Source of the DNA: a virus
Lineage: Duplodnaviria > Heunggongvirae > Uroviricota > Caudoviricetes
Length of the DNA stretch: 64,000 nucleotides
IMG/VR virus record: IMGVR_UViG_3300021138_000001
Strand: one strand, 5' to 3'
Below the pieces are notes generated by a model. That model did no database searches. It was not told where the DNA came from and worked only from the letters and a program-made list of their open reading frames with translations. This document shows, in pieces, positions 1,594 to 40,066 of the stretch. The translations under genes and the position numbers were made by a program. Position 1 is the first letter of the stretch, and every line of letters starts with the position of its first letter.

Positions 1594-1773
1594 ATGCCTT
1601 ATACGACAGACAATATTGTAGATTATATCATGGATAAGGATCATCTGAGTGTAAAAGCTGCTGTAGACGATATTATGGCAAGTAAGATTCAAGATGCTCT
1701 AGAACTCCGTAGAGAATATGTTGGCCAATCCATGTTTAATCCAAGTTCAGAGGAAACAGATGACTCAGAATAA
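1594..1773 (+). CDS. Small prohead core protein (gp67-like), 59 aa, below ORF-track cutoff
   Basis: AGGAG RBS then MPYTTDNIVDYIMDKDHLSVKAAVDDIMASKIQDALELRREYVGQSMF; sits after gp20 as in T4-like phages. Confidence 0.7.
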   Translation: MPYTTDNIVDYIMDKDHLSVKAAVDDIMASKIQDALELRREYVGQSMFNPSSEETDDSE

Positions 1774-2461
1774 TACTGATCTTCAAGAAGTAGAAGACCC
1801 AAAGGCAAAATATTATGAGCCAAAACCAGAAGGCGAAAAGGCTTTCTGGAAGACTCATATTGTAAAGAAGCATCTACACCCTGTAGCTGATGATGCGCAA
1901 TTTAATGGTTCTAATGTAGCCAAAGATAAGACAAGAAAAGCTGATAAGTCTGATCTTCCAGAAGAAAAAATGTCTTCTCCAGAAAAGAAGAAACGCGAAG
2001 AAGTTGTTAAGGCAATGAAGGATAAGACTGCTGAATTCAAAGCCAAGTATGGTGATCGCTGGAAGGACGTTATGTATGCTACAGCAACCAAACAAGCTAT
2101 GGGAGAAGAAGCACTAGATGAAGACTCTCAAGCCGCTTCTTCAGATAGCCCAAGTTCTGGTGGTGGTGGGCCAACAGCAGGTTCGATTGATCCAACATCA
2201 CATATTCAACATGGCCAACCTGTTCCTATGGCTAAAGGCAATTCTATTAAGGAGATGTTAGAGAAGATCGCACTACAAGCTGCAGAACTTCATGATTCTC
2301 TTGGTGAAAATCCAGAATTACAAGATTGGGCTAAGCAAAAGCTTGGCGAAAGCAGAGAATGTCTACAATCTGTTTACAAGCATATTAAGTCTGGCTCAAA
2401 GAACAATGAAGGCCAAAAAGATCCAATGGCCGGTCATCCTGATGCTGGAGGAAAAGTATAA
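1760..2461 (+). CDS. Prohead core/head-associated protein
   Basis: ATG 1760 preceded by GAGGA; charged protein between gp20 and gp21. Confidence 0.6.
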   Translation: MTQNNTDLQEVEDPKAKYYEPKPEGEKAFWKTHIVKKHLHPVADDAQFNGSNVAKDKTRKADKSDLPEEKMSSPEKKKREEVVKAMKDKTAEFKAKYGDRWKDVMYATATKQAMGEEALDEDSQAASSDSPSSGGGGPTAGSIDPTSHIQHGQPVPMAKGNSIKEMLEKIALQAAELHDSLGENPELQDWAKQKLGESRECLQSVYKHIKSGSKNNEGQKDPMAGHPDAGGKV

Positions 2462-2802
2462 TGGCAATTATTCAAAATAGATCATTAGGACATGCAGTAA
2501 CTTTAGATGTAGCCAATAGTACATATAGCTGCAATTCATTTGCCGTTCCAAACAGTTCAGTAGAAACAGTAACTGGACTTGCTGTTACTAAAATTCTTTG
2601 GACTGGTCCTTGGACAATTTCAATTGGTTCAAATCTAATCTTTCAAACTTCAAACAACGAAGGCGTTTGGGATTTAAATTCTATGGGCATTTCTCTTGGT
2701 GGGTATGCTGGCGCAAATCTTAATGTAAATACTACATCTACTACGGCAACATTAATTCTAAATGTTGCTAAGCAATCATCCACTATTGCATCTACTTGGT
2801 AA
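2461..2802 (+). CDS. Conserved head-module hypothetical protein
   Basis: TAATG overlap with upstream gene; beta-rich 113 aa; position in head operon. Confidence 0.6.
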   Translation: MAIIQNRSLGHAVTLDVANSTYSCNSFAVPNSSVETVTGLAVTKILWTGPWTISIGSNLIFQTSNNEGVWDLNSMGISLGGYAGANLNVNTTSTTATLILNVAKQSSTIASTW

Positions 2803-2812
2803 GGATAAAACG

Positions 2813-3472
2813 ATGAAGCTTATTTGCGAAACATTAGAAGACGTTTCAATCATCAAGGAAGCCAGAGAAGACGGCAAGAAGAATTTCTACATTGAGGGAC
2901 CATTCCTAATGGGGGATATTCCAAATAGAAATGGTAGAATTTATGAAAGCCGAATTCTAGCTAAAGAAGTTGCAAGATATACTAAGAATTACATTAAGGA
3001 AAATAGAGCATATGGCGAACTAGGCCATCCTGCTGGTCCAACAATTAATCTTGATCGTGTCTCACACATTATCACAAGCCTTCATCAAGAAGGTTCTAAT
3101 TTCATCGGTAAAGCTAAGATTACAGAAACCCCAATGGGAGACATCGTAAAGGGTCTTCTAGAATCTGGGGGTAAACTTGGCGTTTCTTCTCGTGGTATGG
3201 GTACAGTAACTAGAAGAAAAGATGGTATCATGGAAGTTGGAGAAGACTTCATGTTAGCAACCGCTGCTGATATTGTCGCTGATCCATCAGCACATATTGC
3301 CTATGTTGAATCTGTTGTTGAAGGTCTAGACTGGGTCTATGACGCAGCATCAGGAAACTGGAAAGCAATGAAAGAATTGGAAATTCAAAAAGAACATATC
3401 GCAAAGTCTTCAATGAAGAAAATTAATGAAGAAAAGATAAGACTTTTTGAGCGTTTCCTTCGTACACTATAA
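2813..3472 (+). CDS. gp21: Prohead core scaffold protease
   Basis: Start MKLICE after AAGGA; motifs NRNGRIY, GELGHP, KLGVSSRGMG, DIVADPS. Confidence 0.96.
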   Translation: MKLICETLEDVSIIKEAREDGKKNFYIEGPFLMGDIPNRNGRIYESRILAKEVARYTKNYIKENRAYGELGHPAGPTINLDRVSHIITSLHQEGSNFIGKAKITETPMGDIVKGLLESGGKLGVSSRGMGTVTRRKDGIMEVGEDFMLATAADIVADPSAHIAYVESVVEGLDWVYDAASGNWKAMKELEIQKEHIAKSSMKKINEEKIRLFERFLRTL

Positions 3473-3494
3473 TAAATCTTAAAAAAACAATTTA

Positions 3495-3502
3495 TATAAA
3501 TA
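3495..3502 (+). promoter_or_regulatory. T4-type late promoter TATAAATA
   Basis: Exact motif upstream of gp22. Confidence 0.85.
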
Positions 3503-3533
3503 ATTAATAATCTTTCCAAAAGGAGTAGTTAAA

Positions 3534-4691
3534 ATGGCAGGTAAGAAAAATATTAGTGCGGAAACTCTAGATGAAGTGACTGCATCAGACGGCATCAGCC
3601 ATACTGCTGATCCGTATGCATCTGGGGATTCATCACGTTCTGCTGACAAGAGTGCTGGAGAATCAAGCTATTCTTCTTCAACAAAGTCTGAAGTACTTAG
3701 CGCCATCATGAATCATATTGGTGGTTTAGATAAGGGCGCTCTAGGTAACATTTATAAGGGTCTTCAAGGCGCTTCTGGTTCAGCTACTCGTGCAGCCGAT
3801 AAGTCTGGTGGAGAAGGTTCACAATTGCGCATTTCAGTTTCAGACGCAGACCCAGTAACTGGCGCAAAACTAGCAAACGCTGGTGGTTCTGCTCCAACAA
3901 CACATAATACAACAACCGGTAAGGGTGAAAGGGGGCAAATTCGCCTTTCACCAACTTCAGTAGTTGCTAAGGAAGACGTAGAAGAAATTTTTGGTGGTGA
4001 TGAGCTATCAGAAGAACTAAAGGAAAAGGCAACTGTAGTATTCGAAGCGGCAATTAGTGCTCGCCTAGTTTCAGAAGTTGCTCGTCTAGAAGAAGAATTT
4101 GAAACACGTCTTGAAGAATCAGTAGAATCAATTCGTGGAGAAATTGTTGAAAATGTAGATAAGTATCTCTCTTATGCCGTTGAACAGTGGATTGAAGAGA
4201 ACCAAGTAGCTATTGATACCGGATTAAAGAACGAAATGGCAGAAGAATTTATGTCTGGCCTAAAGAGTCTATTTGAAGCAAATTATATCGACATCCCAGA
4301 AACTAAGGTCGATGTAGTTGCTGAAATGGTAGAAAAGATTGAAGAACTAGAGCTTCGTCTAAATGAAGAAATCGAAAAGAACATTTCTCTACAAGAAGAA
4401 ACAGAAGTTCTTCAAGTAGAAGAAATTTTTTCAACAGCGGTAGAAGGACTAGCAAAGACACAAGCTGAAAAGCTTCGTGATCTAGCAGAAGGTATTTCTT
4501 ACCAAACTGTAGAAGAATTTGAAAAGAAAATCAATATCATTAAAGAAACTTACTTCCCATCATCACAAAAGTCAACTTCAATTACTACACTAACAGAAGA
4601 AGTTGGATATGATGATGAAGAAGTATCAGATTCTGCAACCGGTCCAATGGCTGCTTATATTCAAGCCGTATCTAGACAAGTCAAAAACTAA
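3534..4691 (+). CDS. gp22: Prohead core scaffold protein
   Basis: Acidic coiled coil, VDKYLSYAVEQW and FMSGLKSLFE motifs; between gp21 and gp23. Confidence 0.93.
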   Translation: MAGKKNISAETLDEVTASDGISHTADPYASGDSSRSADKSAGESSYSSSTKSEVLSAIMNHIGGLDKGALGNIYKGLQGASGSATRAADKSGGEGSQLRISVSDADPVTGAKLANAGGSAPTTHNTTTGKGERGQIRLSPTSVVAKEDVEEIFGGDELSEELKEKATVVFEAAISARLVSEVARLEEEFETRLEESVESIRGEIVENVDKYLSYAVEQWIEENQVAIDTGLKNEMAEEFMSGLKSLFEANYIDIPETKVDVVAEMVEKIEELELRLNEEIEKNISLQEETEVLQVEEIFSTAVEGLAKTQAEKLRDLAEGISYQTVEEFEKKINIIKETYFPSSQKSTSITTLTEEVGYDDEEVSDSATGPMAAYIQAVSRQVKN

Positions 4692-4696
4692 ATTTC

Positions 4697-4704
4697 TATA
4701 AATA
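4697..4704 (+). promoter_or_regulatory. T4-type late promoter TATAAATA
   Basis: Exact motif upstream of gp23. Confidence 0.85.
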
Positions 4705-4736
4705 TAATTGACCCAATAAGGAAAAGGGAGAGAAAA

Positions 4737-6086
4737 ATGTATCTAAACGAGGAAATTCAAAAGAAGTGGAAGCCACTAATTGAGCACTCTGAGCTTGCTC
4801 CAATTACTGACTCACACAAGCGTTCTGTAACCGCTCAGCTTCTAGAAAATACAGAAGCTGCTATGGCTCAAGAAGGCGGATCATCTTTCGGTTCACTACT
4901 TGAAACAACTGGTGGTTCTCCAACATCACTAACCGGCGGTTCAGCTAACTACGATCCAGTACTTATCTCACTAGTACGTCGTGCTCTACCAAACCTAATC
5001 GCATATGACATCTGCGGCGTTCAGCCAATGACAGGTCCAACCGGCCTAATCTTTGCTCTACGTCCACAGTATGACTCACAGTCAGGTGCAAACGCATTCT
5101 ACTATGAAGCCAACACTGGACAATCAACATATGGCATGGGCGCTCTTAATGGCTCACAAGCTGTTGGTAACACCGCTGGTAACTGGGGTGGTATCTATGC
5201 TGTTAACACTTCAACTGTTGTTTCAGGCAGCAATACTACATATAACTTCGCTGGTGGTGCTAACACAGCCGTTGCCGAAGCTCTAGGTACTTCTGGTGGT
5301 GCTAACCTTGACTTCAATCAAATGGCCTTCTCAATCGATAAGGTCACTGTTTCTGCCAAGTCACGCGCTCTAAAGGCTGAGTATTCAATCGAACTAGCAC
5401 AAGACCTAAAGGCAATCCATGGTCTAGACGCCGAAACAGAACTTTCAACAATTCTATCTGCTGAAATTCTGTCAGAAATCAACCGCGAAATTGTTCGTAC
5501 AATCAACCTAACAGCTACAGCCGGTGCTGCTGATACTACATCAGCCGGTACTTTCGATCTAGACGTTGACTCAAACGGACGTTGGTCAGTTGAAAAGTTC
5601 AAGGGTCTAATGTTCCAAGTTGAACGCGAAGCTAACCTAATCGCCAAGAATACACGTCGTGGTAAGGGTAATATCCTAATCTGTTCTTCAGATGTGGCTT
5701 CTGCTCTACAAATGGCTGGCGTTCTAGATTACGCTCCTGCTCTAAACTCAAACAACCTACAAGTTGATGACACTGGCAATACCTTCGCCGGTATTCTAAA
5801 CGGACGCATTCGCGTTTATGTTGACCCATATGCTGGTGGTCATTATATGACTGTTGGTTATAAGGGTGCATCAGCATTCGACGCAGGTCTATTCTACTGC
5901 CCATACGTTCCACTACAAATGGTTCGTGCAGTTGGACAAGACTCATTCCAACCAAAGATTGGGTTCAAGACTCGTTACGGAGTTGTTGCTAACCCATTCT
6001 CACGTGGTGCAAACGGTTCAGACGGTACACTAGTACAAAATGTAAACGTTTATTACCGCCGCGTGTTGGTAAATAATATCCTATAA
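4737..6086 (+). CDS. gp23: Major capsid protein
   Basis: LVRRALPNLIAYDICGVQPMTGPTGLIFA, KSRALKAEYSIELAQDLKAIHGLDAE, YCPYVPLQM motifs. Confidence 0.99.
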   Translation: MYLNEEIQKKWKPLIEHSELAPITDSHKRSVTAQLLENTEAAMAQEGGSSFGSLLETTGGSPTSLTGGSANYDPVLISLVRRALPNLIAYDICGVQPMTGPTGLIFALRPQYDSQSGANAFYYEANTGQSTYGMGALNGSQAVGNTAGNWGGIYAVNTSTVVSGSNTTYNFAGGANTAVAEALGTSGGANLDFNQMAFSIDKVTVSAKSRALKAEYSIELAQDLKAIHGLDAETELSTILSAEILSEINREIVRTINLTATAGAADTTSAGTFDLDVDSNGRWSVEKFKGLMFQVEREANLIAKNTRRGKGNILICSSDVASALQMAGVLDYAPALNSNNLQVDDTGNTFAGILNGRIRVYVDPYAGGHYMTVGYKGASAFDAGLFYCPYVPLQMVRAVGQDSFQPKIGFKTRYGVVANPFSRGANGSDGTLVQNVNVYYRRVLVNNIL

Positions 6087-12774: not shown

Positions 12775-13880
12775 TATAGGCTAAAACTCTTAAAAGTATT
12801 TTCGTCCACATCTTTGTTTATACCACCAATAATATATGAAGTAATTTGTCCTTGTTGTGGTGCGACTTGTACTTCTGCCCCCGATATCCACTTTTGAGTC
12901 CAAGGTAGAGGATTAGACCCCATAGACTTTCCATTAAGCCCAATAGCCCCCATACGCTTATGACCAATCCAATCGACATAATCGCAGAGAAGCTTTTCAT
13001 TAAGACCAATCATAGAGCCATCCTTGAACAAATATTTTGCCCAAGTCTTTTCTTGATCAATAACTGAATCAAAAATATCAACCACTTCATTGTGAGTTTC
13101 TTCCTTGATCTTAGCAAAGTCTGGATCTTCTTGAGGAAGAATCTTTAGAAGTTGTTGAGTAGCTGCAAGGTGGACATTCTCATCACGAGCAATAAGCTTA
13201 ATGATCTTAGCATTACCTTCCATTTTCTTGACTTCAGCAAATGCCCAAGAGCAAGCAAATGATACATAGAAACGAATGCCTTCAAGAGCATTAACTGCGT
13301 TAAGGCAGAGCCATAATGCTTTTTTATGATTAAAAGAACCACCATATTGCATAGCCGCATAATTATATGTTTCAATTACACTAGATATATTATTTTGAGC
13401 AATCAAATCATCGTAATACTTACTAATATCACCAGCACATTCTACAATCTCTGGGATATCAAGCATCTCATCAAACACTACTGATGGATCGGGGTACACG
13501 TTACGAATGATATGAGTATATGAACGAGAGTGAATAGTCTCTGAAAATGACCAAGTCTGAATCCAAGTCTCAAGTTCTGGAATAGAACAAATAGGAAGGA
13601 ATGCTAGAGAGGGCGCTCTACCTTGAACCGAGTCCAAAAGAATCTGCCTCTTTAGATTGGAGGTAAAGATATGCTTCTCATGTGTAGTTAAGCTCTTAAA
13701 ATCCTTACTATCTCGTGATAGTTCAATTTCTTCTGGACGCCAAAAAAATGATAATTGTCTTTCTGTTAGCTTTTCAAATGCTGGATATTTTACTGATTCG
13801 TATCGAGCAATGTTAACTGGCTCTCCGAAGAAAGCCAGTTGCTTAGTATGATCTACTTTATGTATATTAAATACTGACAT
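12774..13880 (-). CDS. nrdB: Ribonucleotide reductase class Ia beta subunit
   Basis: FFWRPEE, DSVQGR, ETIHSRSY, LEGIRFYVSFA, RDENVH motifs. Confidence 0.98.
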   Translation of the reverse strand: MSVFNIHKVDHTKQLAFFGEPVNIARYESVKYPAFEKLTERQLSFFWRPEEIELSRDSKDFKSLTTHEKHIFTSNLKRQILLDSVQGRAPSLAFLPICSIPELETWIQTWSFSETIHSRSYTHIIRNVYPDPSVVFDEMLDIPEIVECAGDISKYYDDLIAQNNISSVIETYNYAAMQYGGSFNHKKALWLCLNAVNALEGIRFYVSFACSWAFAEVKKMEGNAKIIKLIARDENVHLAATQQLLKILPQEDPDFAKIKEETHNEVVDIFDSVIDQEKTWAKYLFKDGSMIGLNEKLLCDYVDWIGHKRMGAIGLNGKSMGSNPLPWTQKWISGAEVQVAPQQGQITSYIIGGINKDVDENTFKSFSL

Positions 13881-14107
13881 TATTCCTCTACTATTCTAAA
13901 TGCTTTTCTAGACACTATTGTATCATAATTACGGCCCTTAAGTCTAATCAAAAGACCATCACCTATACCAGAATATTGATGAGCAGATTCTACTTCCCAT
14001 ACTATACCAATTTCGCTCCACCATTGCGGATCATTAAATGTAATTTTCGTTCCTGGTGTAATTATTAAATCTTGCATATCATATTTTCCATGTTTTAAAT
14101 AGTACAA
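13880..14107 (-). CDS. Hypothetical protein
   Basis: 75-aa ORF coupled between nrdA-c and nrdB. Confidence 0.55.
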   Translation of the reverse strand: MYYLKHGKYDMQDLIITPGTKITFNDPQWWSEIGIVWEVESAHQYSGIGDGLLIRLKGRNYDTIVSRKAFRIVEE

Positions 14108-15099
14108 CTATCACAATTTTCTTCGTCAGTGTCACCTTTCGCCAGTTCTTCTACCCTCATTTCACCAGCACCATCATTCGTATTATTATAATAAAGCGTC
14201 TTAATACCATACTTATATGCCATCAAAATATGCTTTAACATTTCCGATAATGGAATCTTTTCATCAGGATAGAACTTTGGATTATAAGAAGTATTAGTAG
14301 AAATAGATTGGTCAATCCACTTTTGTAATACAGCCATAATCTTTAGATATCCTTCTGGTGAAGATTGGTCCCACAGAAGTTCATACTTATTTTTAAGTTT
14401 GCGCACTTCGGGAACAACTTGCTTTAATACACCTTCACGAGAACTCTTAATCGACACTAAAGCACGCGGAGGTTCAATTCCATTTGTAGAATTAGACACT
14501 TGAGCAGAAGTTTCTGCTGGCATTAGAGCCATTAGAGTAGAGTTACGAATGCCGTATAGATCAGCTTCTTCACGAAGAAGATTCCAGTCCATGGACACAG
14601 GACGCGAAGTTAATTCATCAACCTCCTTCTTATATGTATCTATAGGAAATTGGCCATGCCCATACTTAGTTTCATACCACTTATCACAGGCTCCCTTTTC
14701 TTTGGCTAGATCAATAGAAGCTTTAATTAGATAATAAGACCAAGCTTCTGTATATTGGTCAATTAAATCTAGATTGGGATTAGTATAGGTCATATCGTTC
14801 TTAGCCATCCAATATGCTAGATTGATAATACCAATACCTAAAGGGCGACGATTCATTGTAGAAAGTTGTGCAGCAAGAACAGGGTAACTCTGATAATCAA
14901 GTAGAGCATCAAGAGCGCGTACTGCTAGAGTACAGGGCTTTTCAAAATCAGATGTCTTTTTAATTTTACCCCAATTTATCGCACTCAAAGTGCATAAGCT
15001 AATCTCAGATTTACAATCCGATTCAAATATATCAGTCACATATACATGATCTGAATCATCATGATCAATATTATCAACAATTTCGTATTTAAAATTCAT
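14095..15099 (-). CDS. nrdA: Ribonucleotide reductase alpha subunit, C-terminal fragment (nrdA-c)
   Basis: EISLCTLSAINW (Cys462 equivalent), RRPLGIG, MPAETS, KTLYY, terminal CDSC; own AAGGA RBS. Confidence 0.95.
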   Translation of the reverse strand: MNFKYEIVDNIDHDDSDHVYVTDIFESDCKSEISLCTLSAINWGKIKKTSDFEKPCTLAVRALDALLDYQSYPVLAAQLSTMNRRPLGIGIINLAYWMAKNDMTYTNPNLDLIDQYTEAWSYYLIKASIDLAKEKGACDKWYETKYGHGQFPIDTYKKEVDELTSRPVSMDWNLLREEADLYGIRNSTLMALMPAETSAQVSNSTNGIEPPRALVSIKSSREGVLKQVVPEVRKLKNKYELLWDQSSPEGYLKIMAVLQKWIDQSISTNTSYNPKFYPDEKIPLSEMLKHILMAYKYGIKTLYYNNTNDGAGEMRVEELAKGDTDEENCDSCTI

Positions 15100-15691
15100 T
15101 ATATTTCCTTATATGTTTAGTGAAATTTCCTAAATCCCATTCTTTGTGACAACACACACAACATATTTTTTTACCCTGTAAATGAGATGTTCCATTTGGT
15201 GCTTTTTTGAGATTATATTTGCCTCGTTTTTTATTTAATTTAGATTTTCTCATTTTTTCTTTAGTTTTATCAGAAATGTGAATAACTCCACGCAAACCTT
15301 TATTCCAAGGAGTCTTTCCTTTCTTACTTAATGAAAGTTTTTTTCTATGTTCTATTGTTTGAGGTCTTTTAGGTATACCTTTTTGTGTTTTGCTAATTTT
15401 ATTTTTATGTTCTTCACTTAATCCCATTTTAGATGGGTTGTTTAGTTTCATTCTATTAGATGTATTTAAAGGGTGTTCTTTTGATTGCCAATAATGATCA
15501 TTATGCTCAATTTTATTTTTTTGTGCTTTAGAAAGGGTTTCTCTTACTTCTAACGATCTAATTTTTCCTTTATTGCTTTTAGATATTTTATCTGCGGTGG
15601 AAGAGCCTTTAACAATTCGTCCTAAAGAGGGCGAGATTTTATTTACAACGGCTTTGCTATTATTCCAAACTTCCCAATCATCTTTATACAT
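15089..15691 (-). mobile_element. NUMOD3-repeat protein (homing-endonuclease-like, no recognisable catalytic domain) inserted in nrdA
   Basis: Repeats SEEHKNKISKTQKG, TIEHRKKLSLSKKGKTPWNKG; C-terminal CxxC...GNFTKH. Confidence 0.7.
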
Positions 15692-15707
15692 TAGTTTAGT
15701 ATTAATA

Positions 15708-16703
15708 TCAGATTCGTATTTTTTTGCTTTTAATTGGGGTATTGGGATTTGATTTTTTCCATTCTAAATACTTTTTATATTCTTCTTTAGTCAGTTTCAT
15801 TACTTTAACTATTGGACTACCGTCTTTCAGATCATTTAATGGCTTAGTTGGAAGGGTAATTTCGGCGCAAAGATTTGATTGGCGAATTGGTGCGACTTCA
15901 GATAAAAATGAACCGTGATCATTACAATGATCCACATTCATTAGATATACACGTCCAGTATCCTTCCGTTCTTGAACAAATGATGAGAACATGTCAATTG
16001 CGGGTACTTGCTTTTTTCGCAGCTTTGGGTTGCGTTCTGCGCGCTCATATAATTCTCTAAATTTATTTGAGTCTACAAAGAATGCTTCATAGAGTTCTGG
16101 TACGTCATGGGGACTAAAGAGTGTGATATTTCCACCATTAATAAGTCGCTCATACATCACCTTATTGAATTGTACACCATAATCTAGATGTCGAATCCGG
16201 TTATCTTCAGTACCTTTATTATTTTTTAGGACTAAAAGTTCCTCCGCTTCCAAGTGCCAGATTGGGTAATATAATGTAGCCGCTCCTCCACGGACCCCCC
16301 CTTGAGAATTGTGAGTAAGAACCATTTCTGATTCTGGAGAATTTGCAGCAAAAAAAGTGTGTGTGTCTTCTACAGTAATATCAATATAATTAATTGAAGT
16401 ATTTCCTTTAGATACACTAATAATTTTAGTATGATTATTATCTGTTAAGATTTTATCAGAAAAAAGTAAATTATCTGGCAATACTGTAAATTGCATATTG
16501 TCTTTTTCAATCATTATTGGGTGATTTTTTGAACAATTTAATTCAGTTTTATTGTCAAAAATAAGAGTTCTTTGATCATCTATGCAAACTTCAGTTTCCC
16601 AAATGTCAGTTACAGTTTTAAAAACAACATTTTTGTTGGCATCTAAAGTTTTAATTTTCATACCAACTACCAAATCTTTTAGTTGAATTTTTTTAGTTTT
16701 CAA
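15708..16703 (-). CDS. nrdA: nrdA middle fragment (nrdA-b) preceded by 132-aa intein C-fragment
   Basis: TTG start after AAGGA; CSKNHP (block B), DITVEDTHTFFA (block F), THN|SQGGVRGGAATLYYPIW; QSNLCAEI (Cys439/Glu441 equivalents). Confidence 0.93.
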   Translation of the reverse strand: MKTKKIQLKDLVVGMKIKTLDANKNVVFKTVTDIWETEVCIDDQRTLIFDNKTELNCSKNHPIMIEKDNMQFTVLPDNLLFSDKILTDNNHTKIISVSKGNTSINYIDITVEDTHTFFAANSPESEMVLTHNSQGGVRGGAATLYYPIWHLEAEELLVLKNNKGTEDNRIRHLDYGVQFNKVMYERLINGGNITLFSPHDVPELYEAFFVDSNKFRELYERAERNPKLRKKQVPAIDMFSSFVQERKDTGRVYLMNVDHCNDHGSFLSEVAPIRQSNLCAEITLPTKPLNDLKDGSPIVKVMKLTKEEYKKYLEWKKSNPNTPIKSKKIRI

Positions 16704-17526
16704 TTTTATATTCCTTGATTTGCGGCTTATCCCAATTATGATATTGTATCATATGTTTACTAAAATTACCAAGATTATATTTTTTATTGTTATTACAATC
16801 AAAAGGACAAGCTCTATATTTATTTTTATCATTCATCGCACAATCAACACCATACTTTTCTATGTTTGTTTTTTTGCTTTTAAAATTTCTGTCTGTCCAA
16901 TCTTTTTCTTCCATAACTTTTTTATGTGTTTCTTTTGTTTTTTTATCAAACATCATATTTGTTACCCCATGTTTATCAAACATAACTTCTGATAATTTTT
17001 TTGGGTTTTTAAATGGGTTGTCTGTACCATATATTGTTTCTATAGAATTTTGTCTTGGAGTTTTTACTATATCTAAATCTAATGTATGGTGTTTTCCATA
17101 TTTTTTTATATTTGTTTTATATATTTTATCTTTTATTATTTTTGATCCTGATCCCCTTGAACCATATTTTTCTATTAATTTTGTATTTACTTTTTCTTGC
17201 ACTTTATCAAATTCAAAAGGAAATGGTCCTTCTATATTTAATGGAACCATATTATTATTCCATCTATTTAAATATTTTTTATTGTTTGGTATGTTTAATT
17301 TTTTAAGAACTTTGGTTTCCCATAATAATGCTGAATTCTTATCTTTAAAAACTTTTCTAATTTCTATTAGATTTGGTTCTCCATGTTTTTCAATAAACAA
17401 TTTTACATATTTTGAAGATGACATATAGGTACTGCCAATGTCTTCTAATTTTGCTTTTTTTGAATACCTAACTCCATAATAATATTTGTCTTGTTGTGTC
17501 CATCCTAGTAAATAAGTATAATACAT
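16693..17526 (-). mobile_element. GIY-YIG-variant homing endonuclease inserted inside the nrdA intein
   Basis: YYTYLLGW...YYYGVRY, YMSSS, WETKVL, YLN; TATAAATA at 17545-17552 and AAGGAG RBS. Confidence 0.85.
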
Positions 17527-17575
17527 ATTTTTCTCCTTTATACTTATTTATAGTTTTCTCTAACGCCACCCTGGC

Positions 17576-18481
17576 TTATTCCTCAATAACTTCGACCCAG
17601 GTTTCTGGAGTAAGACAACACGATTTAACAGCACTTTGAAAATGTTTATAAAAAGGTATAACTCCAGTATGACTAGCGTCACCATTACGAATGGGACTGC
17701 CAATAGCCCTAATACGACCAGCACCAATACCAATCCCAGCCTTTTGACTAACATACTTAACGACTGCTGCAGATGTTGCATTGATGGAATCGAGTGAGTC
17801 ATCAGTTTCGATAAGGACACATGAGCTAAACTGCCTTTGAGGCGTGCGAACTCCAGCCATAATAGGAGTAGGAAGGCTAATATCAAAAGTGCTAATGGCA
17901 TCATAAAATTCCTTTACCCATTTAAACCGATCTGTTGTGTATTTTGAAAATAGAGTCATTGCGATAAGAATGAATGACATTTGTGGTGTTTCATAGAACT
18001 TGCCCGTTACGCGGTTCTTAACAAGATACTTACCGCGAAGTTGTTCCATTGCCGCATAAGTCAGCAATTCGTCCCGAGAATGATCAATCAATGTGTCAGC
18101 AAACTTCCATTCGTCTGCAGTATATGCATCGAGTAGCTGACGATCATAATAACCTTCCTTTACTACATGTACGACATGAGTATATAGATTATCAGGAGTA
18201 AACCTACCATAAACTTCCTTACGAAGATTATAATTGATTAGGCGTCCCGCAACATATTGATAGTTTGGATGTTCTTCAGAAATCAATTCGGCAGTAGCCT
18301 TAATTAGAGTTTCTTGAATATCGGTTGACTTAATATTATTATAAAACTGAATCTGTGATTTAATTTCAATTTCAGATACAGATACTCCAGATAGACCTTC
18401 ACATGCTTGTTCAACTACCTTATGGAACTTGTTTAGATTTAACGGTTCTTTTGTTCCGTTGCGCTTAGTTACATTAATCAT
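17576..18481 (-). CDS. nrdA: nrdA N-terminal fragment (nrdA-a, ATP cone) ending in 13-aa intein N-fragment
   Basis: VTKRNG ATP cone, PTPIMAGVRT, SSCVLI, FQSAVKSC|CLTPETWVEVIEE-stop. Confidence 0.95.
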   Translation of the reverse strand: MINVTKRNGTKEPLNLNKFHKVVEQACEGLSGVSVSEIEIKSQIQFYNNIKSTDIQETLIKATAELISEEHPNYQYVAGRLINYNLRKEVYGRFTPDNLYTHVVHVVKEGYYDRQLLDAYTADEWKFADTLIDHSRDELLTYAAMEQLRGKYLVKNRVTGKFYETPQMSFILIAMTLFSKYTTDRFKWVKEFYDAISTFDISLPTPIMAGVRTPQRQFSSCVLIETDDSLDSINATSAAVVKYVSQKAGIGIGAGRIRAIGSPIRNGDASHTGVIPFYKHFQSAVKSCCLTPETWVEVIEE

Positions 18482-19152
18482 ACTTCATCCTTGGTGTTAA
18501 AATAATCTGTTAGTGCTGGGAAACTATTTAGGACTACTTCCTTACACTGTTCTGCAATACTGCGATGTTCTAGCTGAGTAGCCTTATCAGTACGAATTTC
18601 GATATAATGCACCCACGAACGAAGTGTGCCCGCCATATAAAGAGTAGACCCGGTCATGCCCTCTGGTAGAATTGCGCGAGCCTGTTCCTTAGCAATACCC
18701 TTGTTAAGTGCCCACTCATATGTCTCTTGGATTTGTGCAAGTAAACTAGCTTGGCGCATACGAAAATCTTCCGCAAGACGACGAGATTTTTCATCATCAC
18801 CCATAACAATTGAATTTTGACGATTCTTATTATCTTGTGTGCGGGCTTCCCGAAATTCAAAATTATCAGCTACCGCATATCGTTGAGAAAATTCTTGGAA
18901 TGAAAATGACCGGTGACGCAGAATTTGACGAGCAATATCACGAGTAGTTTTAATTTCCATCGTAAGACTTACCATCTCCAATGGTGACCAATGGGCATTG
19001 TTAATAAGATACTTGACTAGCTTAGGGGCAGTTTCTGTATTCATTTGATTAGCCGGATTAGATACTCGGGCAGCATATGCCACTAGATCGTTCGCATCCT
19101 TTACACCTTCAATTGTTGGTTGTGTAATACCAATTAGCTTCACATCAGACAT
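18478..19152 (-). CDS. thyX: FAD-dependent thymidylate synthase
   Basis: HWSPLE, RQILRHRSFSFQEFSQRY, QARAILP; likely start MSDVKL. Confidence 0.97.
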   Translation of the reverse strand: MSDVKLIGITQPTIEGVKDANDLVAYAARVSNPANQMNTETAPKLVKYLINNAHWSPLEMVSLTMEIKTTRDIARQILRHRSFSFQEFSQRYAVADNFEFREARTQDNKNRQNSIVMGDDEKSRRLAEDFRMRQASLLAQIQETYEWALNKGIAKEQARAILPEGMTGSTLYMAGTLRSWVHYIEIRTDKATQLEHRSIAEQCKEVVLNSFPALTDYFNTKDEV

Positions 19153-37423: not shown

Positions 37424-37811
37424 TTATGCCACCTTGTTCTTGTCTTTTTCTTATAACTGCAAGTTGAGCATCAGATAAAATAGAAATAGCCTGTTTAGCC
37501 TTTTCATTATTATATCCATAATAAGATTTCACCAATTCTAAATCATCTTCTGATACTTTCTTGACCCATTTGGCAAATCGCTTTTTGGGTCTGATAGTAT
37601 TTAGAAGATAATAGAATTGAAGTTTTCCACCCAACGCTGGATACATATTCATATCATTAGCATAAAACAAGGTGTCTGTAAAGTAAGACAATCCTTTATT
37701 TACAATCCACGCATTATATTCCTTTTCTATACGAGATGGATCGTCAGAGTCTCTGATTAAATCCACCTTGGTATTAGAAATCGCATTGACGAAATCAAAC
37801 GGATTTGCCAT
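37416..37811 (-). CDS. gp62: Clamp loader small subunit
   Basis: PFDFVNAI, YNAWIVNKGLSYF.D, IRPKKRF.KW.K. Confidence 0.93.
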   Translation of the reverse strand: MANPFDFVNAISNTKVDLIRDSDDPSRIEKEYNAWIVNKGLSYFTDTLFYANDMNMYPALGGKLQFYYLLNTIRPKKRFAKWVKKVSEDDLELVKSYYGYNNEKAKQAISILSDAQLAVIRKRQEQGGINE

Positions 37812-38542
37812 TACTTAAATTCGCAATCTGCCATAATTTCTGTTAGACATGCCATTAGATTAATTTCTTGGTCCGCAACAAAAGCAGCCTTATATTGATA
37901 CTGCCCAATATAAAGAACTAGTTGTGGAATAGAATCCTTAGCCATAAATTCAGAAGAAGCGTCATATAGCTTTCGGAAAAGTTCTGTAGAATCTTGGTCT
38001 GAGTTTTCAGCAACCCACTTACGAACCATTGGAAAGTTCTTATCTTTTAGAAATACAATAAGAGCCTTAAAGGATTCTTCACCCAAATTAACAAGAATGC
38101 CCGAGTCAATCTTTCCTGTGGCTGAGTAACGTTGAAGTTCATTCAGAACTCTACGCCAATCTGGAAAATACTTCATAATAATTGCCGCAACAGCTTCATT
38201 ATCAAAAGCCACAGTTTCTCGGTTCAGAATTATCTTTGTGCGCTTCATAAACTGAGCGGCAAGTTTTGGCATATCTGACTTTGAAATTTTAAAATTGATT
38301 ACTGAACACCGAGAGTGTAGGGGCTCGATAATACGATTAAAGAAGTTACATGTCAAGATAAATCCGCAATTGATGGAATATTCTTCCATAAAATTACGAA
38401 GTGCTGGCTGAGTTGAGTTGCAGTTATGAACAACTACTCCGGTCCCCGTAATAAAAGTATGATTTTTCTTTACCGTAACATCAACAACATTTCTATAACC
38501 AATCGGTATAATACTTTTCACATTTGAAACATCATAATTCAT
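37811..38542 (-). CDS. gp44: Clamp loader large subunit C-terminal part with 40-aa intein C-fragment
   Basis: VVDVTVKKNHTFITGTGVVVHN|CNSTQPALRNFMEE; FILTCN, PLHSRC, FPDWRRVLNELQRY. Confidence 0.93.
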   Translation of the reverse strand: MNYDVSNVKSIIPIGYRNVVDVTVKKNHTFITGTGVVVHNCNSTQPALRNFMEEYSINCGFILTCNFFNRIIEPLHSRCSVINFKISKSDMPKLAAQFMKRTKIILNRETVAFDNEAVAAIIMKYFPDWRRVLNELQRYSATGKIDSGILVNLGEESFKALIVFLKDKNFPMVRKWVAENSDQDSTELFRKLYDASSEFMAKDSIPQLVLYIGQYQYKAAFVADQEINLMACLTEIMADCEFK

Positions 38543-39386
38543 AATTAATATCGCCGTCCTTTTTTGTGGTAGTTTCACGCCATTTCGATATTCTTTGTTT
38601 CTTTTTTTCTTCAGATTCTTTTAATCTATATAATTTTTGGCTGTCTGATATTTTTTTCTTAACTTCTGGTGTATTAGTATTGGGTGTGTTTTTAACTAAG
38701 CCTTTTAACCAACCATCTGGTATAATGTCATTTGATCCAAACATCTTACCCATTTTAGTTAAAGGATTATGATAACAAACTTTACCCTTTTTACTATCTG
38801 ATATCTTCGTATTAGGTCCTCTTTTTTTTGAAAGTCTATTTTTAGGATATGGTTTAGGAACCCATTGTGAACATAGTTGAATTCTATCATTTAACAACTT
38901 TAAAATTCTTTTATATGATCTATTTCTATTCATTAAAATTTTAATATATTTCTCAAGAATAGGTATTTTAGATGGATGTAGTTTAAAATTTTTATTTCTA
39001 ACGTTTTTAATTAAATTTTGTAAAGTTTTGGTTCTTTTTACTTTTTCACGAATTTTACCTATTTTCATAGGATTTTCATCAAATTTTTTAAAAGCAGGCG
39101 CACAATGTGCATTCAAGAAATGTGGGTTTTTGTGTACTTTTACTTTACTCAAAAACTTATATTCATGTAAAATTGCATCATCTATATTATCAAAAACCCT
39201 ACATATTTTTATTATATCGGGGTTACCATTATTTTTTACAAATTCTTTAACTATAGTAGAAGATGTGAAATATTCAACCCAAATATCACCAACATATGAT
39301 TTTTTAGATATTCTGACACCATAATACCAAATTTTATATTTAGACCAACCTATAGCATAAGTATAAGGTTTATAGATTTTATTCAT
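38532..39386 (-). mobile_element. GIY-YIG-variant homing endonuclease between gp44 split-intein halves
   Basis: PYTYAIGW...WYYGVR, YFTSS, HEYKFL, FLN; late promoter 39409-39416; GGAG RBS before ATG 39386. Confidence 0.85.
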
Positions 39387-39433
39387 GATCGACTCCATAT
39401 TACAAATCTATTTATAAGATGAAGCCGATTATT

Positions 39434-40066
39434 TTAATCCTTTTCGATAATTATTTTAAATTCGTCTAAACCTTCACTTATTGTTCTAGTAACGATATTA
39501 CCTTCCTTATCTTGACAGATTAGTGGATGATCTTCTGTACATCGGATTGTTTTTCCACATTCAAGCACAATTTCATAGACCATTTTATTTGTTCTATTCG
39601 CTATTTCTGCAGTATCTTCTTCAAAAATGTGTGTTTCGGTATTAAAAGAAATCACATTATATTCTAGGCCGTCTTTCATATCGCCAAGACGCACGAGTTC
39701 GCCGTTTGAAAGTTTAATAAATTCGTTCTCATCTAGACAGTTTAGATAATCTGCTTCGTCAAGAATTACATATTTACGGCCACCAGAAAAAGAAACTGAT
39801 GATGCGAAGTTTTGAATTTCGGTACGTAAGGTATCGATGTTACCATTCATCGATCCGTTGATTACGATATAATCACAACCAAGTTCTTCTAGCATAGCTC
39901 GCGCTACTGTAGTCTTACCTACACCAGCAGAACCACATAGAATTAGATTTGGAATATTCTTATTGTCTACAAATTGCTGAAACATATTCTTCAAATCCTC
40001 TGGAAGAATAGTCTCAGCAATTGTCTTTGGGCGATATTTTTCACACCACAAAAATTCATCATTCAT
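39434..40066 (-). CDS. gp44: Clamp loader large subunit N-terminal part with ~101-aa intein N-fragment
   Basis: WCEKYRP, GSAGVGKTT, ILDEADYLN|CLDENEF...IRCTEDHPL. Confidence 0.94.
   Translation of the reverse strand: MNDEFLWCEKYRPKTIAETILPEDLKNMFQQFVDNKNIPNLILCGSAGVGKTTVARAMLEELGCDYIVINGSMNGNIDTLRTEIQNFASSVSFSGGRKYVILDEADYLNCLDENEFIKLSNGELVRLGDMKDGLEYNVISFNTETHIFEEDTAEIANRTNKMVYEIVLECGKTIRCTEDHPLICQDKEGNIVTRTISEGLDEFKIIIEKD

Follow-up and report, generated by a model that had tools for sequence, protein, structure and literature searches.

Natural atypically split inteins have been described with N-terminal fragments (IntN) of 15 to 37 residues (PMC13014065). Protein semisynthesis and live-cell labelling create a demand for split inteins whose N-terminal fragment is of peptide size, and few natural ones are known. 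Two other described systems bear on the locus presented here, namely the fractured genes of Dassa et al. 2009 (PMC2677866; NrdA-1 to NrdA-7) and the nrdA gene of Aeromonas phage Aeh1, which is split by the endonuclease gene mobE (PMC3045599). We analyzed a 64,000-nucleotide stretch of viral DNA (IMG/VR record IMGVR_UViG_3300021138_000001; Caudoviricetes), hereafter the window, in which nrdA is broken into three genes, nrdA-a, nrdA-b, and nrdA-c. As in the fractured genes, a gene of DNA metabolism appears to be broken by a split intein, and as in Aeh1, a T4-like nrdA is fragmented by a mobile endonuclease gene. However, whereas the Aeh1 break has no intein and its pieces assemble via tails, the first break in the window carries a complete set of splicing motifs. 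The last 13 residues of NrdA-a and the first 132 residues of NrdA-b (the C-terminal fragment, IntC) most probably constitute a naturally split class 1 mini-intein of the atypical S1 type, lying between the equivalents of Cys292 and Ser293 of Escherichia coli NrdA; we predict that it splices, and both splicing itself and its rate are what we infer from the evidence below.

The gene order on the minus strand of the window is thyX, nrdA-a, a 277-amino-acid (aa) open reading frame (ORF), nrdA-b, a 200-aa ORF, nrdA-c, and nrdB. The parts of the split gene and of the putative intein are as follows.

17576-18481, minus strand: nrdA-a, 301 aa, ending in AVKSC followed by CLTPETWVEVIEE and TAA.
17618..18481, minus strand: N-extein of nrdA-a, 288 aa, with the ATP-cone, the all-alpha domain, and the start of the barrel (Pfam PF03477, PF00317, and PF02867).
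17579..17617, minus strand: IntN, 13 aa, CLTPETWVEVIEE, net charge -4, block A with Cys1; the TAA stop occupies 17576-17578.
16693..17526, minus strand: free-standing homing endonuclease gene, 277 aa, with a SegE-type GIY-YIG-like N-terminal domain, a DUF7487 middle region, and a C-terminal Cys/His motif.
15708-16703, minus strand: nrdA-b, with a TTG start, encoding the 132-aa IntC and then SQGGVRGG.
16308..16703, minus strand: IntC, 132 aa, TTG start, with a basic head, block B CSKNHP, block F YIDITVEDTHTFF, and block G VLTHN.
15711..16307, minus strand: C-extein of nrdA-b, 199 aa, from the +1 Ser to a Lys-rich tail (Pfam PF02867).
14095..15099, minus strand: nrdA-c, 334 aa, the remaining barrel (Pfam PF02867, profile positions 214-522).

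The coordinates that the original prediction had given for a 13-residue IntN directly after KSC in nrdA-a proved exact on checking the ORFs, and the CSKNHP, block F, and His-Asn-Ser elements that it had read in the opening 132 residues of nrdA-b are all found in the sequence. Together, these make up the full class 1 splicing set. The nucleophile Cys1, which is Cys289 of nrdA-a, opens the stretch CLTPETWVE; the Ser-x-x-His of block B lies in CSKNHP at IntC residues 57 to 62; block F, whose stretch is also read as YIDITVEDTHTFFA, lies between CSKNHP and VLTHN; and the penultimate His and terminal Asn of block G are followed by Ser at the +1 position (VLTHN, then SQGG). The two fragments are encoded on separate ORFs of the same orientation, each joined to one part of NrdA, and nrdA-b has its own start, overlapping the stop of the upstream endonuclease ORF by 11 nucleotides (nt). 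With 13 against 132 residues, IntN is by far the shorter half, as in S1-type atypical split inteins, and its charge of -4 faces one of +5 over the first 20 residues of IntC. The IntN/stop region recurs without a single difference in contigs from three other, independent freshwater samples, so the stop codon is real and not an assembly error.

Removal of the two fragments restores the host sequence exactly. Residues 3 to 289 of nrdA-a align to residues 6 to 293 of E. coli R1 and residues 131 to 298 of nrdA-b to residues 291 to 458, the intein flanks corresponding to E. coli residues 6 to 292 and 293 to 458 with none missing. The -1 residue, Cys288 of nrdA-a, is the counterpart of Cys292, and the +1 Ser that of Ser293, the residue at which specificity loop 2 of the E. 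coli enzyme, including Ser293, Gln294, and Arg298, begins (bioRxiv 10.1101/2021.07.31.454598). The Cys preceding the intein had been taken for the equivalent of the catalytic Cys225, an assignment that the same alignment to E. coli R1 rules out: the counterpart of Cys225 is Cys221 of nrdA-a, found in RQFSSCVLIE, 67 residues upstream. Cys279 and Glu281 of nrdA-b correspond to Cys439 and Glu441. The equivalent of Cys462 we take, from a reading of the sequence, to be the Cys of ISLCTLSA in nrdA-c; thus, with the Cys225, Cys439, and Cys462 equivalents in nrdA-a, nrdA-b, and nrdA-c, each piece would carry one active-site cysteine. An uninterrupted KSCSQGG allele is present in a related phage of ~93% identity (run X7).

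To the single IntC sequence, Pfam gave only Hint_2 at an E value of 0.03, below the cutoff; relatives of IntC carry PF07591 and PF14890. The intein profile search suggested with the original prediction was clearer in its outcome: a profile of 28 IntC sequences matches inteins in the Protein Data Bank (PDB), namely a DNA polymerase intein, Mja KlbA, Pab PolII, and gp41-1, with E values of ~1e-5. An AlphaFold2 model of IntC (pLDDT 75) was compared with the PDB by Foldseek, and every one of the best 50 matches listed is an intein or a related Hint-type autoprocessing domain; their TM scores are 0.5 to 0.73, and they include Npu DnaE, NrdJ-1, Ssp DnaB, VidaL, and Cat. We then modeled the complex of nrdA-a residues 262 to 301 with nrdA-b residues 1 to 142. 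The score of the tail with IntC was 0.87, whereas the best of three controls reached 0.01; a mark of 0.87 is attained by 51 of 78 solved complexes and by 2 of 108 mismatched pairs. The 13-mer is placed in the Hint fold, so that the prediction survived a test that had been named with it as a possible refutation. The three runs have at least 69% of their contacts in common, with a partner pLDDT of at least 50. Residues 287 to 300 of nrdA-a contact IntC residues 1 to 9 and 15 to 18 (the adjacent strands), 55 to 62 (block B), 117 to 123 (block F), and 130 to 133 (His-Asn-Ser), which in the model are the contacts expected for a reconstituted Hint active site. Because many inteins have already been solved, this result establishes likeness to inteins and is no proof that the pair binds; the score may rest on that likeness.

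A contiguous homolog, recovered from IMG/VR (locus L007), shows where the break falls. In its model, which is of moderate confidence, the break lies where the chain turns from strand 7-10 to strand 13-16, so that the predicted split follows directly after strand 2, the S1 position known from VidaL and PolB16 (PMC13014065). The window IntN aligns to the first 13 residues of the contiguous homologs, and in this alignment all of the splits fall within one short loop.

The window intein is, on its sequence, one of many, a member of a large metagenomic family with IntN lengths of 12 to 37 residues. A search of 5.8 billion proteins recovered at least 90 clusters of nrdA-b proteins bearing IntC, about 45 to 60% identical to that of the window, and these retain LTHN followed by SQGG in 89 of 90 cases and CSxNHP in 88 of 90. 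A search with the end of nrdA-a gave 40 further clusters, in which the protein ends after 13 to 37 intein residues (six clusters after 13, seven after 14, and six after 15). Cys1 and Pro4 are invariant among 23 nonredundant N termini, whereas Val8 is found in 21 and Glu9 in 22; conservation of block F was judged from the sequences themselves and from alignment with homologs. Among 36 such IMG/VR loci, in which the nrdA-a ends were located by tblastn mapping, 27 that show this end carry the split, and 3 (L007, L012, and L026) have the contiguous form. Contiguous mini-inteins at the same site were also recovered by tblastn with IntC in Shewanella phage Thanatos-2 and Vibrio phage SUMAE. The split layout occurs in a cultured isolate with a finished genome, Acinetobacter phage KARL-1 (accession no. 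MH713599; locus L001, positions 1725 to 5444), whose nrdA-a ends in HS followed by CLTPDTKVEILV, a 12-residue IntN, and is succeeded by a homologous endonuclease gene and then by the IntC-nrdA gene. In the KARL-1 annotation, both nrdA genes are called "aerobic NDP reductase large subunit" and the gene between them a hypothetical protein.

The exact junction differs within the family. In KARL-1 (positions 2531 to 3520 of L001) and Thanatos-2, the intein follows Ser, begins with Cys, and ends in HN before CSQGG, its +1 residue being the E. coli Cys292 equivalent, whereas in the window (16308-17617), SUMAE, and most IMG/VR loci, it follows SC, likewise begins with Cys, and ends in HN before SQGG, with the Ser293 equivalent at +1. 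On these sequences, the insertion point has apparently slid by one residue, or one codon, within a single intein family. In the papers searched, which run to March 2026 and do not include the supplementary lists of Burton et al. 2020 and Sekar et al. 2022, we found no intein split at this NrdA site and no mention of the KARL-1 case.

The gene between the halves had been called GIY-YIG in the original prediction, a label that is likely right for the 277-aa ORF as far as its sequence goes, although no GIY-YIG Pfam model matched the protein itself. Pfam recovered DUF7487 only, and the PHROG assignment is "homing endonuclease." The KARL-1 homolog matches PF19835 at an E value of 0.005, below the cutoff, while more distant relatives carry PF19835 (SegE_GIY-YIG) proper, and Tyr5, Tyr17, Gly18, Arg20, Glu70, and Asn87 are invariant among 19 aligned relatives. 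Searches of the PDB with the single sequence and with a profile returned no informative structure. Two signals lie at the head of the gene.

17545-17552, minus strand: T4-type late promoter box TATAAATA, upstream of the endonuclease ATG, found by motif search.
17510-17549, minus strand: 12-bp hairpin enclosing the Shine-Dalgarno sequence and ATG of the endonuclease gene.

The region 17510-17600 folds with -14.6 kcal/mol (z = -1.78). The whole window contains 23 copies of the box TATAAATA, where 11.2 are expected; most of them are on the coding strand and upstream of genes, and this fits T4-type late transcription in this phage. The late promoter and hairpin would regulate the endonuclease, by analogy with mobE of Aeh1 and with the genes of Dassa et al. 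2009.

The contents of the gap vary across the family. In the window and KARL-1, it is filled by a SegE-type GIY-YIG-like gene, and in other loci, by a GIY-like gene of 364 to 480 aa, Vsr-like/DUF7487 genes of 538 to 917 aa, an HNH gene, or none at all; where the gap lacks an endonuclease and measures 22, 36, or 144 nt, there are still two ORFs. A strain in run X7 that is 99% identical to the window has lost positions 16921-17546 by deletion between two ATAAA repeats, and with them most of the endonuclease gene, but retains IntN, its stop, the 3' end with the ribosome site of nrdA-b, and IntC. Two proteins, P0194 and P0204, look like products of similar deletions that fused IntN to the last residues of an endonuclease. 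Empty, occupied, and endonuclease-less split alleles thus coexist, which fits a mobile element and a split form that is stable once made. In this family, a single loop of the mini-intein gene is a recurrent landing site for free-standing endonuclease genes, and the split outlives the endonuclease.

We envisage the following course of events. A SegE-type GIY-YIG gene would have come to occupy the loop-coding part of a once contiguous mini-intein gene, the intein being made since then in two parts, an acidic tail of 13 residues at the end of NrdA-a and a domain of 132 residues, basic at its head, at the front of NrdA-b. The tail would dock as strands 1 and 2 of the Hint fold, helped by charge complementarity; Cys1 would form a thioester with the carbonyl of Cys288; the acyl group would shift to the +1 Ser; Asn132 would cyclize and release the intein; and an O-to-N shift would yield a 487-residue NrdA-a/b chain with loop 2 intact (KSC-SQGGVR). 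This chain would finally join NrdA-c noncovalently across the second, intein-free break. With somewhat less assurance, we also favor the wider proposition that the 13-residue tail (12 in KARL-1) is fully active, and hence the shortest natural IntN known, and that it belongs to a large, so far undescribed NrdA loop 2 family in which three or more endonuclease families have repeatedly caused a split at the same hairpin turn.

Several observations weigh against this account. The partner chain has an overall pLDDT of only ~51 to 53 in the complex model, and the N-terminal strands of the contiguous-form model have one of 61 to 71. The start codon of nrdA-b is TTG rather than ATG, although it is placed exactly at the position of the ATG of relatives. 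Most relatives have, after the 13-residue core, an acidic run (e.g., DEGDSEDK) opposite a basic IntC head (MVKTKKIQIK), whereas the window has the core only; lacking this extension of 5 to 10 residues, its IntN could have a lower affinity.

The last of these points leads to the alternative that survives best, although we hold it to be rather unlikely: that the intein is active but the 13-mer depends on prior assembly of the folded NrdA-a and NrdA-b exteins, which would make the isolated peptide a poor reagent. KARL-1 and locus L038 are, like the window, devoid of the acidic extension and have almost no charge complementarity (IntN charges of -1 and -2; IntC heads of +1), and NrdA fragments of Aeh1 can associate by themselves (PMC3045599). 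In the complex model, however, the tail is predicted to dock although it is accompanied by just 27 extein residues and by no folded extein, and the engineered 11-residue Ssp DnaB S1/M86 fragment works in the form of a peptide (PMC13014065).

It is a good deal less probable that the halves form a non-splicing, noncovalent clamp, which would keep NrdA-a and NrdA-b associated in the manner of the Aeh1 tails, or that nrdA is a decaying pseudogene. The precedent is a functional one, since the fragmented NrdA of Aeh1 works via its interaction tails (PMC3045599); moreover, the second break in the window gene must be bridged without splicing, and its IntN lies at the short end of the family. Yet a clamp needs neither Cys1 nor the block B His, the terminal His-Asn, or the +1 Ser, and the retention of these catalytic residues across ~90 diverged clusters speaks for splicing rather than for docking alone. 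An unspliced domain of 145 residues would, in addition, sit within specificity loop 2. As for decay, all three nrdA ORFs are intact, and nrdA-a and nrdA-b match E. coli R1 with E values of 1e-119 and 1e-70.

That there is no split at the protein level, the break being instead a group I intron with its endonuclease gene, a ribosomal bypass, or an assembly artifact, is hardly credible: such introns are frequent in nrd genes of T4-like phages (PMC3653736), and one was marked elsewhere in the window on first reading, but an Rfam scan of 13800-18700 with E values up to 1 found no intron (the one match, snoRNA-like, had an E value of 0.99 and is attributable to chance), the endonuclease ORF does not share the frame of nrdA-a and is equipped with a promoter box and a ribosome binding site of its own, nrdA-b has a separate start at the position of the ATG of relatives, variants with 22 to 36 nt between stop and start still have two ORFs, and the layout recurs in the finished KARL-1 genome and in independent assemblies. 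With no Rfam family, differing frames, and separate signals for both halves, removal at the RNA level is unlikely, and protein splicing remains the explanation we prefer.

The second break (14095-15820, minus strand) has no intein motifs; a Lys-rich tail of nrdA-b stands opposite an Asp-rich head of nrdA-c. One more ORF is inserted there.

15089..15691, minus strand: second inserted ORF, 200 aa, at the intein-free nrdA-b/nrdA-c break, with NUMOD3 repeats only.

For this ORF, Pfam found no nuclease domain, and there was no PHROG assignment and no tblastn match in phages; its C-terminal motif, a Cys followed at some distance by LGNFTKH, is common to it and the endonuclease at 16693-17526. At this break, after the Cys439 region, many nrdA-b relatives, among them P0007, P0011, and P0092, end in SNLC followed by a long canonical IntN (CLAGDTYV...); their nrdA appears to be fractured by two different split inteins. 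In the ~200-aa relatives P0016, P0019, P0027, P0050, P0084, and P0085, IntC is followed by eight extein residues, SQGGIRNA (loop 2), and a new Cys-led segment, which looks like the N-part of a further intein, so that loop 2 would be a tiny extein between two inteins.

The gene for the clamp loader gp44 (37811-40066, minus strand) is fractured by a canonically split intein, with an IntN of ~101 aa after DEADYLN and an IntC ending in VVVHN before CNST; the GIY-YIG gene between its halves (38532-39398) has an N-terminal domain paralogous to that of the nrdA endonuclease. A single phage thus carries two split inteins of different architecture, in gp44 and nrdA, and if our interpretation holds, one phage cell would contain an atypical split intein, a canonical one, and an intein-free assembly via tails.

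The window comes from an uncultured freshwater T4-like phage. Its DNA is from freshwater metagenomes, and its DNA polymerase gp43 shares <50% identity with the counterparts in cyanomyoviruses and marine T4-like viruses. No phage record was matched by megablast of 14000-18600, and tblastn was required.

If the intein is active, dozens of natural S1-type pairs would become available for consensus design and work on orthogonality, in a deep natural alignment of the kind that has earlier been a source of fast, promiscuous inteins, and KARL-1 would offer a cultured test system. The value would be practical rather than conceptual and would hinge on activity.

Comparison with the described systems places the window intein as follows. 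The genes of Dassa et al. 2009 resemble it in that their halves are separated by a free-standing endonuclease gene (GIY-YIG, Vsr-like, or HNH), which overlaps the start of IntC with its 3' end and is preceded by a late-promoter box and a hairpin (PMC2677866). However, their NrdA inteins lie beside the thiyl-radical Cys (the Cys439 site) and follow the canonical split pattern (long IntN, short IntC), whereas that of the window lies between Cys292 and Ser293 and is split after strand 2. The NrdA interaction tails of Aeromonas phage Aeh1 (PMC3045599) resemble the Lys-rich tail of nrdA-b and the Asp-rich head of nrdA-c at the second break. AceL-TerL, GOS-TerL, and Cat are likewise natural and phage derived and have a short IntN, but one of 25 to 37 aa, in a terminase and with an S2 split after the first helix (PMC13014065), whereas the window IntN is shorter and its split is of the S1 type. 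The engineered Ssp DnaB S1/M86 (11-aa IntN; cited in the same source) has in common with the window intein Cys1, a +1 Ser, a split after strand 2, and a similar IntN length, but it is the product of an artificial split and directed evolution, whereas the split in the window is natural and is flanked by a homing endonuclease gene.

VidaL (PDB code 6vgv; 16-aa IntN; Burton et al. 2020, cited in PMC13014065) is close in architecture: both are natural and Cys dependent, with an S1 split, a very short IntN, and an IntC of >100 aa, and the source of VidaL, too, is environmental and phage-like. They differ in host protein and insertion site, in IntN length (16 against 13 aa), and in the Ser that the window has at +1. 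The IntC model superposes on VidaL with a TM score of 0.61 and 18% identity in the structural alignment, and VidaL is not among the IntC profile matches at E values up to 1. No match titled PolB16 is among the listed Foldseek hits, where 9hth ("DNA-directed DNA polymerase") is the Aes123 PolB1 intein. Likeness to VidaL at the level of the fold only, with no PolB16 match, thus points to the same architecture in an independent lineage. PolB16 OarG, with its "record-short" IntN of 15 aa (PMC10189870), is also a natural S1 split with a peptide-sized IntN, but it is cysteine-less (Ser1), resides in a PolB-type polymerase from a sheep-gut metagenome, and is biochemically characterized, whereas the window intein has Cys1, resides in NrdA, and is known from its sequence and from models. 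The original prediction had described the IntN as natural, unusually short, and within reach of peptide synthesis. This description agrees with the residues, the profile, the model, and the complex, but its benchmark was outdated: given the 16 aa of VidaL and the 15 aa of PolB16 OarG, the margin in length is 2 to 3 residues rather than about 12, the window IntN being shorter than that of PolB16 OarG by 2 residues and the KARL-1 IntN by 3. If active, they would lower the natural minimum to 12 to 13 aa.

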